DNA of 54,809 nt, filler included, from Perkinsus olseni (Eukaryota): NCBI GenBank assembly GCA_013115125.1. It is 2 parts of 2 records of this genome, joined end to end, with 100 filler letters (N's around TTAATTAATTAA, not from the genome) between each part and the next. Parts side by side here need not be neighbours in the genome. Positions count along the whole stretch, not along the records: positions 1 to 27,406 come from JABANN010000467.1; 1 more part is not named here. One strand, written 5' to 3'. Below are positions 8,408 through 22,392 of the stretch, one piece after another. A model generated the notes under the pieces. The model did no database searches. It saw only the letters and a list, made by a program, of their open reading frames with translations, and was not told where the DNA came from. Made by a program: the position numbers and the translations under genes. How positions within the stretch are numbered: position 1 is the stretch's first letter; every line of letters begins with the position of its first letter.

Positions 8408-10201
8408 CTACTCAGTATGTCTCCTGATCATATCTTGACGACCCGGGCCCACGCCAATCCACGACACAGGGACGCCGGTCCACTCCTCGAGGGCCTCGAT
8501 GTACTTCTGGGCGGCCGCTGGCAGCCCCTCAAAGGACTTAACCTGAGAACCATTCAGTTAACCATCGGAAACTGACGTGAGTGATTGGCCGTACATTGCT
8601 GATGTCTTCAGTCCAACCCTCCATCTCCGTGTACACCGGCGTCACCTTCTCGAGCTCCTGAATGGTCGAGGGGTAGTAACCGTCTTCCAACTTCTTGCCG
8701 TCGATTTCGTAGGCGGTGCAGACCTGCGAAAATGAGGGGGTCGAGCGGAGCGAAGCGACTAATGGGGCGTACGAGAAGCTTCTTCATGCCGCTGAGTACA
8801 TCTAGCTTGGTCACATTAAAACTGGTAAATCCGTTGAGGAAGTTAGAGTACCTGTGAAGGCAGGAAAAATGGCATTCATGCATCGCTTCGCTCCGCCTGA
8901 GGTGACTTACTTTAATACGGGGATATCCAGCCAGCCGCATCTGCGGGGACGACCGGTAGTAGTACCGTACTCGTGACCTTGCTCACGAAGCTGAGTGCCA
9001 TACTCGTCGAACAGCTCAGTAGGGAAGGGTCCTCCACCGACACGAGTGGTGTATGCCTACCATCCAACAGGTCCCAGGTTCGATCCCCGCACCTTACACC
9101 CTACCTTTACGACACCAATAATACACTGAATAGCCTGAGGGGGAACTCCCAGGCCGGTGCAGACACCACCAATGGTCGTGTTAGAACTGGTCACATACGG
9201 ATAAGTACCAAAGTCGATATCCAGCATGGTAGCATTAGCAGCCTCCACCAGGATATTATAGTCCTCTAAAAATGACAAACATGAATCGCTTCGCTCCGCC
9301 CTTCCCCCCTCAACCTACCACGCTGTGACTTCTGAATGGCCTTATGCATCATCGTCACGCTGTCAACTATCTGGCTCTTCAGCACCTCCGCGTAGCCATG
9401 ATAACGCTTCACCTCAGACTCAATATCCAACTCAATATTGTACCTGCAGCAGGTCGATCAGTGGCATATCCAGAAAAAAAGATACCCCTACCTCAACTGG
9501 CACCACTCGAGGAGCTCACGAAGCTTGCGGTCGAAGGTGGGGAGGTCCATGAGGTCCCCAACTCTGAGACCATTACGGGTGGTCTTGTTGGCGTAGCACG
9601 GGCCAATGCCGCGCTTGGTAGTGCCGATGGCTGTGGAGTTCTTCTCAGCTTCCTGGATGCCATCAATCTGATAGAAAAACAGTAAAATCATTCCGTCCCA
9701 AGGGCCTCCCACTCACCATCTGGTGGGCGTCGAACAGCAGACTGGCCCTATTGGAAAGGTAGAGACGCTTGAGGGCCTCCGCATCATAGTCCTTCAACTG
9801 TTCGAGCTCCTTAAGGAGAGTCGGTACGTGGAGGACCTGACCATCACAGTGGAGATGAAATAAATCACCACCCCCTCATCCGACATACCACTCCATTCCC
9901 AACTAAGTTGTCGCACTTCTTGTTAACGATACCGCAAGGAAGAAGATGGAAGGCGAACTTATGATCGTCAACCACCAAAGTGTGACCTAACCAAATCTGT
10001 ATCCTGCAGGCTTCGACCTAAGATACCCTCCCTACCAGCATTAGCCCCTCCATTGAACCTAGCACACAGGTAAGCCCGCTGGGCCAGTATGTCCACCAGC
10101 TTGCCCTTGCCCTCATCGCCCCACTGCGTGCCAAGGATGACAGTGAAGCTCGAGTCCAACCCACACAGGGACTCGTTGGACGTCGACGGTAATGACGACA
10201 T
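8408..10201 (-). CDS. ADSS: Adenylosuccinate synthetase, multi-exon
   Basis: [67 protein letters not shown] and WIGVGPGR motifs across GT-AG introns. Confidence 0.97.
9286..9300 (-). repeat. Dispersed intronic motif GGCGGAGCGAAGCGA; type example of element B
   Basis: Core GCGGAGCGAAGC also at 5902, 8745, 8883, 11853, 12523 and 18407, all intronic. Confidence 0.85.
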
Positions 10202-10605
10202 TGTCAAAGCAGCGCTGCCCGAGAACCATTTCCACCTCCCAACAAAACTCGTTTGCCTGTTCCCTATTAGCTATATCAGATATACGACTTGCCCTCCTCG
10301 CCCGCGAGATCGGATTTTTCCACGAAAAAAGAGCCCGGGTGAAATTTCGAACTTTTCTTCAAAAATTTCATCATAAACTCCCCTCAGTCGATTTCCACCG
10401 AGACGACCGTCTGAGTGACGTGGCGCCCTAGCCCCCTCCCCTCAGCTGGTGGAAGAAGAGGGACATCATCACACAATGACCCCCACCGTTGAGAAATCCC
10501 AAGAACGCAAGATATCCAAGTTCTTAAACCAACGGTAGTGGCATCCCATCACCACCAATGTTTGACCTCCTGACGGTAATCGTCATACTCCGTCATCACA
10601 CAACC

Positions 10606-12154
10606 TCACTTAGCAGGGGACTCGTCCTTCGGTGTAGCGTCTTTGCCCGGCTCTCCCGCAGTCTCCGCCGTGGCCGCCGCCGCTGCAGCTCGCTGTTGGG
10701 CGGCAGCAGCCTTCCTAGTAGAAGCGTCCACGACTTTCTGATCCGCCTCAAAATGGTCGTTCATGTCAACTGTGAACATCTCGTCTCCGGGGTTGGCGAA
10801 CCCTTCGAAGCCGATGGTAAAGCGGTCGGCATCGTCGGGGGCGAGGGCCCTGTTGAAAGAAAAAGGAGACAGATTTTGTGCAATTCTACACCGTAACAGT
10901 GCCGCAGACTAAGAGTCGTACTAGCAAGCCAACTAAAGAAAGTCCGAGAGGCTAGCGTGATTTGCGGGAGGAGTGGTATGTGAGATTGCACGCATGCACA
11001 TCCCCCCGGTGTCGCTGTCCCCTTACTGCACAATGCGCTTGAATCTCAGTCCTAGGGGCTTCACAAGCTTCTCTTCTCGTGAGGACAACCACAGGGCGAT
11101 CTTAACTCCTCCTGAAGGACAAGCACGTAACGCAGGCAGGAGGAGGGAGGTCGCGGCGTCAACGACTACTGCTCTCGAAGATTCTTCCGCATACCACTAG
11201 CGGAGCACGGACGACGGTCGACGGCAGGAGTGATACGATTAGGGAAAGGGATGGTACGGCGGTCGCTACCGCCGACATTTGCGATGCTGTTCCCTACAGT
11301 ACTACAACAACACTAAACCCGAAATTTTCCCGCGCGCCCGAAAATTCTTCCCCAGTGCACCACTGGATTGCCTCCGCTCCTCCTCTCTATCCCTCCTACC
11401 TCTCCTAACGCTGCATACCACACCACAGACGATGTCTTCATTTATGAGGGGGTAGTAGGTCTCCCCGATAACCGACAGGACCACCTCCGTCCAGATATCA
11501 TCGATGATCTGCGGCACGGAAGAGGCGATCGGCCACCGACTGTTGCCAACGACGTTCACCTTCTGCTTCTCAGCCTTCACGATCCATCTGCCGCCCTCAG
11601 TGCACATGGGGTCCTCCCAGGCGGGGCTAACACCAGATCTGAGAAAAAGTGCAGGTACTGGGAATCGAACCCGGGACCTAATCCACCATACTTGAAGACG
11701 CTGTAGTCCGCGTGTACGAGCTTGCTGGGCTTGTGCATGTTATTGGAAATCCTCCAAAATTCTTCAATAGTCCCAAAGTCAATCGCCTTCTGCTGATTTT
11801 GCTGCCAGTGATCCTTAACCGACTGCGAGAGGAGAAAAAGTACACTCGTGAATCGCTTCGCTCCGCCGCCTCCCGATACTACCCTTCCTTGCTGTGACAT
11901 CACCCACAGGCTCCACTCATGCTGCAATTTATGATCTTCCTCACTGCTCGGAATTACCTCTGAATTCATAAAAAGCACTCCCCGGGAATCGAACCCACAA
12001 CCTTCCGCATACCTCCATTAGTCTTGGCGTTCTCCCCCGCCGCCACTGGCGCCTTTTCCTCCGACACTACGGTCTGTTCAACATTCTCATCCTTCCGCTT
12101 CTCCTCCTCTTCCGACGGATTCTGTTTCGTTATCGCTTCCACAGTCGACGACAT
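10606..12154 (-). CDS. eIF4E: Translation initiation factor eIF4E family protein
   Basis: HKLQHEWSLW, DFGTIEEFWR, DYSVFK|SGVSPAWEDPMCTEGGRW, WTEVVLSVIGE, ICGVVCSVR-like IVCGVVCSVRRG and KIALW; both cap-stacking Trp residues present. Confidence 0.95.
11960..12012 (-). other. Intron largely made of a tRNA 3'-half-like element (B-box + T-run); type example of element A
   Basis: GTATGCGGAAGGTTGTGGGTTCGATTCCCGGGGAGTGCTTTTT...CAG. Related copies at 6374-6417(-), 9065-9097(+), 11644-11691(-), 17480-17524(+) and 17733-17771(+). Confidence 0.75.
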
Positions 12155-21055: not shown

Positions 21056-21533
21056 TTTTAGAGGAAGCATATCGGCTCCTTTAGTGAATGCAAACTCGAT
21101 TTAGCTGTACATCTTACGCTTTCGACTCGTTGTGAATCGTGCTCGGCTGTTGTGTAACTTTAGGAAAGATTTATTACCTGATCGTTCCGCCACGGTGAAC
21201 GTCTTTACTATCGATTGTAAAGTAACGGTGAAACTGAGCGGCGTATTGTCTTCAGGGATATTCTCCCGAACTCCCCGGGTCCATCTCAAAGACCCCAATC
21301 GAGCAGCGGATCGGAGCACTCATGGCCTGGTCGGTCGATGGACTAGTCTGCAGCGAAGAAGGGCAGCAGCAGCACACTCAGCGCCCTATTGACGACCCTA
21401 GTATCAACATCACTGTGTACCATTCCGCCACACCATTATTATGGGGTATCATTCTTCTAACTGATGCCGTTGTGTTGTCCCCGGGCGGCGTCAGTGCGTT
21501 CAGGGGTGATCCCTGTAGTACTTTAGAGAGCGT

Positions 21534-22392
21534 ATGTTGCTATCCGGTCGGCGGCAGGTGGAGGGAAGATTGACGACGCTTTGGAGCTCCTGCTCTCCTT
21601 GCGGCTGTCGGGGGTATCATAAGTTTGTACGGCCAGAGGCCCCTAACCAGGACAACCTCAAGAAGATTATTACTAGGGTAGTAGACTGATGACCATTGCT
21701 GCTACCGTTTCCACTGTTCTAACATTTACTCACGTTCGAAGGGAACCGGTAGGGCTAGGAAGGACATGCCTAGTGGCCCGGCTGAGGTGTACTCGACCGG
21801 GCACTATTCACAGTATCGGATGATCGTCGGAGATTCGCGTAATTTCGATGGTAATGTGGAGGAACGTATCATAGGTTGAACCTTGCTCGCGGCAAACCTG
21901 CTCCAATGGTATAAAGATTCCTCCTTGGTCGTGTTACCTCTATATTAACTATTCGTACGTACAGTTAGTCGCTAGTGTCGAACGGTTTATGGCCGTGCGC
22001 GACCTAGCAGTCCTTCGGCCTCCTGTCGCCGTGAACTCACAACGGGAGTCACGTCGGCCACTTCGACCAGGGAGAGTCTCTCAGGAACTTCAACCGATCG
22101 CCTTCGAGATGCAAAACGACAAGAATGCCGGCAACTACCTCTATGACAAGCACTACTGGGGTTACATTTGCTCTCCCAAGTTCGAAGGGAAGACGTACAA
22201 GGAGATGAAGGAGATGCTCGCGGAGCTGCTAGAGAAGTGCGATATGACCGAGGGACGCTGTCGCTTCAAATTGGAACCGCCAAGTCGCTGGGAGGTAGTA
22301 AAGAGGACTTGGCCGCGCGCCACGAAATTATTGGTGTTTCCTGTCAGAAATTGAAGCGAATTCGACGGCGGCGTTTTTCGTTGGATCGGTGA
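21534..22392 (+). CDS. BolA-like protein, probably mitochondrial; exons 21534-21677, 22085-22294, 22348-22392
   Basis: Splicing gives ...DNLKKIITR|ELQPIAFEMQND...HYWGYICSPKFEGKTYKEMKEMLAELL, which fits the BolA pattern (LxPxxLEVxND..H..IVSxxFEGK). Phases are consistent and the N-terminus is Arg-rich. Confidence 0.7.

Follow-up and report, generated by a model that had tools for sequence, protein, structure and literature searches.

We analysed a window of 54.8 kb from the genome of Perkinsus olseni (assembly GCA_013115125.1); the window is the whole stretch of DNA under study, and the evidence base consists of its sequence, RNA contigs and homologous proteins. Genes confirmed by Pfam encode adenylosuccinate synthetase (ADSS), eIF4E, Sas10/Utp3, a thiolase, Sec62 and a SWIB-domain protein. 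The Sas10/Utp3 gene had been called Lcp5 in a first-pass annotation of this DNA, and its P. chesapeaki record carries the name neuroguidin. Translated, two long exons share 95% and 94% identity with P. olseni entries; their identity to entries of P. marinus and P. chesapeaki is 69-74%. We observed that a motif of the form GTATC...GATAC recurs in introns of these genes, and that it is the core of a ~50-base repeated sequence, here called family A, which forms most or all of several short spliced introns.

RNA contigs of four RNA-type runs were aligned to positions 2600-22599, and our conclusions apply to the RNA-covered parts. This gave at least 15 GT-AG intron joints on the gene strand, each present in 4/4 RNA runs; all figures for confirmed introns rest on the joints listed, 15 of 50. 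Nine of them belong to ADSS (minus strand, 8543-10035) and six to Sec62 (plus strand, 17733-18798). The confirmed introns measure 48-128 nt, with 48 nt as the shortest and 48-59 nt in 11/15. For Sas10/Utp3, tblastn with P. olseni and P. chesapeaki proteins placed introns at 12936-12983, 12761-12826, 12490-12646 and 12368-12417, and those of the gene downstream of Sec62, at 19844-19937, 20027-20334 and 20537-20625, follow a P. olseni-like protein model, P0010. An ab initio gene finder was used as a guide only. Depending on its settings it finds 13-15 of the 15 confirmed introns; it also fuses neighbouring genes, and the remaining introns that it calls are predictions. At the 3' end of 12490-12646 and around 20027-20334 it is wrong, and homologue-protein structures were used there. 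The public protein models of the locus 18463-23895 conflict with one another: P0010 (573 aa) joins Sec62 to the downstream gene, and the P. marinus model P0003 (743 aa) joins the downstream gene to dolichol kinase.

The motif is strongly enriched in the window. Exact GTATC-N18-GATAC occurs three times, at 9999, 18751 and 20277; dinucleotide shuffles, 100 in all, average 0.05 occurrences and never reach three. The half-site GTATCWWWGGTYGA, with at most one mismatch, occurs 12 times against a mean of 0.17, and again 0/100 shuffles reach the observed count. The positions given in the first-pass annotation all hold: the half-sites at 16733, 18245, 19891, 21866, 45572, 47557 and 52657 are among the 12 matches, and the variants listed at 12602, 12777 (29 nt) and 20495 are there as well. 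On the plus strand the copies at 9999 and 12777 run in opposite directions; relative to their genes, 9999 is sense and 12777 antisense.

Similarity around the GTATC and GATAC arms extends over ~50 nt, so that a longer element does surround the motif. The unit measures ~45-55 nt and is asymmetric; with all copies aligned in one orientation, conserved blocks continue for ~17 nt past the GATAC arm and for a few nt past the opposite one. On the sense strand it often opens with a 5' splice site and a G run (GTAGGGAGG), followed by GTATCTTAGGTTGA, two free bases, CATGCARGATAC and RGAAYAGGTC, and this right end, RGAAYAG|GTC, reads as a 3' splice site. Between the arms, the consensus spacer carries the conserved asymmetric blocks AGGTTGA and CATGCA. 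The inverted repeat is internal to the unit and 5-7 bp long; in the ADSS copy it stops 9 nt and 12 nt short of the intron ends. The unit is therefore neither a pair of half-sites nor a 28-bp element bounded by terminal inverted repeats. Of the two explanations offered in the first-pass annotation, a two-half-site binding element is not supported, as the arms have only GTATC(Y)(T) in common and the 14-18 nt spacer is conserved and asymmetric. The other, a very small element of 28 bp with terminal inverted repeats, survives in its mobile-element part, which fits a sequence dispersed in both orientations over at least five genes and almost only in introns, and fails in its size and its boundaries.

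We found six full copies, in four genes, and about ten partial ones (table); copies are known in ADSS, Sas10/Utp3, the thiolase gene, Sec62 and the gene downstream of Sec62. Identity among the six full copies is 58-84% across 15 pairs (43 columns), and family A is therefore an old family. The nhmmer profile was built from these six copies, and because they are its seeds, their E-values (1e-10 to 1e-13) are circular. Two more profile matches, at 48934 and 53018, seem to belong to other sequence. A cluster of palindromic GGAATTTCCG-type repeats at 48905-48985, with a weak match to the family A profile, appears to be a different repeat.

Table. Copies of family A and cores of three further repeat families in the window (seed, copy used to build the nhmmer profile).
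Feature	Position	Strand	Context	nhmmer E	Further evidence
Full copy, sense to ADSS	9982-10035	-	entire 49-nt intron 9987-10035	1.8e-12 (seed)	joint in 4/4 RNA runs; adjoining exon Pfam Adenylsucc_synt
Degenerate copy, antisense to Sas10/Utp3	12372-12418	+	fills 50-nt intron 12368-12417	0.025	GT..AG
Full copy, antisense	12596-12646	+	5' end of 157-nt intron 12490-12646	5.5e-13 (seed)	GT..AG; exon ends by tblastn (P0005, P0007)
Full copy, antisense	12768-12822	+	55/66 nt of intron 12761-12826	1.8e-12 (seed)	
Partial copy (left half), sense	16726-16750	+	from +7 of predicted 42-nt thiolase intron 16727-16768	0.0013	half-site 14/14
Partial copy (left half), sense	18244-18262	+	3' end of Sec62 intron 18213-18264	0.25	half-site 0 mismatches; joint in 4/4 RNA runs
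Full copy, antisense to Sec62	18734-18786	-	53/72 nt of intron 18727-18798	1.2e-13 (seed)	joint in 4/4 RNA runs
Weak partial copy, antisense	19884-19906	-	straddles alternative 3' splice site (19889 vs 19937)	2.1	half-site 0 mismatches
Full copy, sense	20032-20082	+	abuts 5' splice site of 308-nt intron 20027-20334	1.2e-10 (seed)	
Full copy, antisense	20261-20311	-	near 3' end of intron 20027-20334	4.1e-12 (seed)	exact GTATC-N18-GATAC
Partial look-alike	20494-20526	-	coding exon	0.15	half-site 1 mismatch
Partial copy (left half)	21862-21886	+	ambiguous	0.037	
Partial copy (left half)	45572-45587	+	between carboxypeptidase and SWIB genes	0.53	half-site 0 mismatches
Partial copy (left half)	47554-47577	+		0.0072	half-site 0 mismatches
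Partial copy (left half)	52655-52672	+		0.48	half-site 0 mismatches
Degenerate left end	9444-9491	-	RNA-confirmed 48-nt intron		5' splice site, G run, GTATCTT
Same degenerate left end as in 9444-9491	18555-18602	+	RNA-confirmed 48-nt intron		
Family B, core GGCGGAGCGAAGCG	5902, 8744, 8884, 9287, 11854, 12523, 13210, 18407, 46106 and others				12 matches (at most 2 mismatches) against 0.50 expected
Family C, tRNA T-arm-like (B-box-like) core GGGTTCGAWYCC	6391, 9076, 11661, 11985, 17496, 17749				8 matches against 0.89 expected; one is the real tRNA-Asn
Family D, core AATTTCGTGGCGC	6962-6974, 14747-14759, 15854-15866, 18006-18018, 22317-22329 (the five exact copies)				6 matches against 1.2 expected

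Three RNA-confirmed introns carry copies (9987-10035, 18213-18264 and 18727-18798), and degenerate 5' pieces are found in two more (9444-9491 and 18555-18602). Five further copies lie in introns of homologue models: one each in 12368-12417, 12490-12646 and 12761-12826, and two in 20027-20334. The P. chesapeaki protein P0007 matches two frames that are joined only if intron 12368-12417 is removed; 12761-12826 corresponds to a 22-residue gap with a stop codon relative to both Perkinsus homologues, and 18727-18798 to a 24-residue gap relative to P0010; splicing of 20027-20334 restores the P-W-P junction of P0010. The thiolase intron 16727-16768 is a prediction only, and its splicing would take out an in-frame TGA between two thiolase open reading frames. 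At intron 19844-19937, two 3' splice sites 48 nt apart (19889 and 19937) are both in frame: an RNA contig piece begins at 19890 and thus uses 19889, and P0010 resumes at 19938. That the element is scattered through introns, as first annotated, is right for most resolved copies; it does not hold for the coding match at 20494-20526, the copy straddling a splice site at 19884-19906 or the ambiguous one at 21862.

We also compared introns with exons in the two RNA-validated genes. Family A is present in 5/15 introns (914 nt) and in 0/13 internal exons (1645 nt), so that its density in coding exons does not equal that in introns. By simple arithmetic, five random matches over the 2559 nt would all be intronic with a probability of ~0.006. 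Sense and antisense copies are both common, the antisense ones making up about half of the resolved intronic copies. Neither a strand-specific RNA signal nor spread by reverse splicing alone would readily give such a mixture of orientations.

The profile covers 49/49, ~46/50, 55/66 and 53/72 nt of four introns (74-100%). The remainder, 0-19 nt, is far below the 48 nt of the shortest confirmed intron, which indicates that in these four cases the element is the intron itself and not a passenger. It had been described as occupying introns; it is located in them, and in these four it is more than an occupant. Setting aside the 308-nt intron, which holds a copy of each orientation, introns with sense copies measure 42-52 nt and those with antisense copies 50-157 nt. 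Among sense copies the 5' splice site and the G run align with one another, and many of these copies start 7-16 nt after the 5' splice site. Of the five antisense copies, four have GTAAC or GTRAG as a 5' splice site at a distance of 4-13 nt from the right end of the element.

What identifies introners, that is, similar sequence forming introns in several unrelated genes, with copies that are spliced, is found here, splicing being seen for three copies by RNA and for five by homologue models only. We favour the reading, at a rough probability of 55%, that family A is an old, very short (~45-55 bp), non-coding, dispersed introner-like DNA element. We infer that it has been mobile and that its insertion created introns. 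A sense insertion would itself be a minimal intron in full, its 49 nt matching the size that introns usually have here. An antisense insertion would be spliced by way of a GTAAC or GTRAG lying 4-13 nt outside the other end of the element together with a downstream AG, giving introns of 50-157 nt. Insertions that could not be spliced would break genes and be lost, and such loss would account for the nearly exclusive presence of the resolved copies in introns.

Several observations weigh against this reading. The copies are diverged and do not show the pattern of a recently active element. Their core is better kept than their flanks, down to two exact 14/14 half-sites, which could reflect a selected function. 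We looked for terminal repeats and a clear target-site duplication at the copies in the window and saw none; the ends of the unit are not sharply defined, and the sole candidate duplication is a 3-nt GGT repeat at the ADSS copy, which is expected anyway because of the AG|GT splice context. Scanning a metagenome collection for the full pattern returned no match. The motif definitions used for the comparison of introns with exons were chosen post hoc, after the introns had been inspected, and in introns this short some nearness to the 5' splice site is unavoidable. Some copies also lie in awkward places. RNA contig X8 is unspliced through 19890-20534 and keeps the 308-nt intron with its two copies, with an in-frame stop in that form. 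The copy at 21862 is intronic in the gene prediction and in an exon map based on P. marinus, yet falls within a contiguous RNA contig piece (21649-22109). The partial copies at 28385, 45572, 47554 and 52655 lie outside the resolved gene models. The look-alike in the coding exon encodes residues conserved in P. olseni-like P0010 and in P. marinus P0003; it may be a chance match, given the 0.17 half-site matches expected by chance in the window.

Family A might instead be a small foldback element, or one akin to a miniature inverted-repeat transposable element, that inserted into pre-existing, tolerant introns and had no role in creating them. Copies in both orientations would be expected of such an element, and so would the two copies in one 308-nt intron and the copy that sits beside a different repeat in the 157-nt intron. 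The partial copies at 45572, 47554 and 52655, where no gene model was resolved, and the copy at the 3' end of 18213-18264, 32 nt from the 5' splice site, fit it as well. We nevertheless consider this explanation unlikely, for in four introns the sequence left over is too short for a prior intron, and the alignment among copies takes in the 5' splice site and G run of sense copies and the region adjacent to the 5' splice site of antisense copies. Recurrence by chance, or an artefact of composition in short G/T-rich introns, has next to no probability. Individual weak matches (nhmmer E >0.1, and the coding look-alike) may be of that kind, but for the family as a whole it is refuted by the shuffles, neither count being reached in 100, and by the alignment of six copies over ~50 nt.

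A conserved functional signal within introns, kept by selection, would be another source of similarity; it could be a splicing enhancer or hairpin that defines very short introns, or a protein-bound DNA site. The contrast between the core, where several half-sites besides the two exact ones have one mismatch, and the 58-84% identity of full copies speaks for it, as do the start of many sense copies 7-16 nt past the 5' splice site, after the G run, and the sixth stem pair, which is C-G, T-A or T-G among copies, with one C/A mismatch. Against this, the inner sequence is asymmetric, so that the RNA differs in antisense copies, which nevertheless make up about half of the resolved intronic ones. 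Predicted folds are unremarkable: z-scores against shuffles run from -0.76 to +1.08 in seven carrier introns and from -0.18 to +1.11 in three element-free introns. At least three unrelated cores populate introns in like manner, each of which would need a factor of its own, and there is no Rfam match; within 8000-22500 Rfam returned nothing on the element at E up to 5, and its sole match at gathering score in the window is a tRNA-Asn. Taken together, we regard a selected signal as improbable, more so than insertion into existing introns. An unusually stable hairpin was rejected on the same z-scores: a small hairpin is predicted in the ADSS copy and is not exceptional. A role of the GGTTGA or GATAC block as branch site was rejected by eye, as antisense copies exist and the fit to yUnAy appears inconsistent.

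To place family A among known elements, we compared it with miniature inverted-repeat transposable elements and with published families of repeated introns. Miniature inverted-repeat transposable elements are short, non-coding and dispersed in both orientations, with terminal inverted repeats flanked by a target-site duplication. Family A shares with them its short length, lack of coding capacity, dispersal in both orientations and possession of an inverted repeat. It differs in that the inverted repeat is not terminal, no target-site duplication is seen and the unit is at or below their usual size.

The comparisons with published systems draw on parts of the papers cited. In the dinoflagellates Polarella glacialis and Symbiodinium, non-coding repeats, the introners, make up spliceosomal introns of unrelated genes; certain classes do so in either orientation, with one splice site carried and the other recruited nearby, and classes are described with target-site duplications of 4 or 8 nt, inverted repeats ending at the splice site and hundreds to thousands of copies (Roy et al., bioRxiv 10.1101/2020.10.14.339549). 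Family A likewise is a repeated sequence forming introns in unrelated genes in either orientation; unlike these classes as described there, it is ~50 nt long and diverged and has no target-site duplication or terminal repeat that we could see, its counts coming from the window only. The introner elements of Amoebophrya, a parasite in the dinoflagellate lineage, are repeated introns with inverted repeats capable of forming hairpins and encode no transposase; inverted repeats of 8-20 nt pair the intron ends, direct repeats of 3-5 nt overlap the exon borders, and the splice sites are mostly non-canonical (Farhat et al. 2021, PMC7789003). Family A resembles them in consisting of repeated introns with an inverted repeat that can form a hairpin and in encoding no transposase. 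In contrast to the type described in that account, its inverted repeat is internal and 5-7 bp long, no direct repeats are seen at the borders, and 15/15 confirmed introns are GT-AG.

Fungal introner-like elements are multi-copy introns that decay in sequence and length toward ordinary introns, and they exceed regular introns in length and are predicted to fold into stable structures (PMC3609843, PMC4457414). Such decay would fit the diverged copies and degenerate pieces of family A. In contrast to the fungal elements as reported in those parts, a sense copy, at 49 nt, is as long as a regular intron, and the folds show no unusual stability. The internally symmetrical stwintrons and related introns of Hypoxylaceae are nested twin introns of ascomycetes and form families of similar short introns (PMC8469720). 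They have in common with family A that short introns are similar in sequence and internally symmetrical; for family A there is no sign of nested splicing of the sort reported there. In the literature searched, supplementary files not covered, we found no report of introner-like elements in Perkinsus, and nothing relevant on Perkinsus intron gain, repeats, miniature inverted-repeat transposable elements or splice sites. Family A is likely to be a new, unusually small introner variant, in a lineage for which that literature reports no introners.

Family A is accompanied by other repeated cores in the window (table). Family B occurs in 5/15 RNA-confirmed introns and in both orientations when its shorter variant GCATCGCTCCGC is included, and one antisense core lies in intron 12490-12646 alongside the copy of family A. 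Family C lies just past the 5' splice site of several confirmed or predicted introns (ADSS, eIF4E, Sec62 and a cytochrome b2-like gene), mainly in sense orientation; family A gave no convincing alignment with a tRNA or with family C, and a relation to either was dropped. At least two copies of family D are intronic. RNA contigs show loose ends or odd joints at 6974, 14747, 15853/15871 and 18024, at family D copies, and the assemblies therefore branch at that repeat; the TGGCGC part of its core presumably resembles the complement of the tRNA 3' end. Any of the four cores is present in 12/15 RNA-confirmed introns and in 0/13 internal exons. The 14 predicted carboxypeptidase introns are mostly without the four cores, and core density is therefore uneven.

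The proportion of 12/15 hints at intron origin on a larger scale. We tentatively raise the possibility, to which we give less credence than to the reading of family A alone, that most short Perkinsus introns descend from a handful of intron-forming elements of ~50 nt, with family A as a bidirectional one that takes its 5' splice site from either end.

Further features of the window were noted in passing. RNA contig X11 continues for 17 letters past 10216, just upstream of the ADSS start (minus strand), and this tail looks like the reverse complement of a spliced leader of the dinoflagellate/Perkinsus type. If it is, 10216 would mark a trans-splicing acceptor. Allowing up to 3 mismatches, the tail matches nothing in the window, and a spliced-leader origin of family A was dropped as it had no support. 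The tRNA-Asn (GTT) gene, at 24909-24982, lies between predicted exons of a plus-strand membrane-protein gene and is apparently intronic. A single-exon gene at 39826-41493 encodes a protein of 555 aa with a likely signal peptide and an end-to-end match to DUF6740 (E 3e-223); it is free of introns, and the surrounding region is intron-dense. A 21-nt tandem repeat (32039-32250) adjoins an N stretch at 32054-32146, and a (CAA)n run (27507-27570) adjoins another at 27407-27506.

How spliceosomal introns multiply is a long-standing question, for which introners are the best-documented mechanism. Perkinsids stand at the base of the dinoflagellate lineage, as its sister lineage, and it is there that intron gain is extreme. 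In practical terms, gene prediction in Perkinsus could take the repeated cores as intron markers, with the conflicting public models at the Sec62 locus as a case in point. If our reading of family A is true, complete minimal introns of 50 nt that work in both directions would set a lower size limit for intron-creating elements, and would suggest that standard introner screens, which rely on longer and near-identical copies, miss families that are old or tiny. Should a handful of such elements indeed have given rise to most short introns, they would be the smallest introners known. They would also show that the introner-driven gain of dinoflagellates and Amoebophrya extends back to perkinsids or recurred in them.

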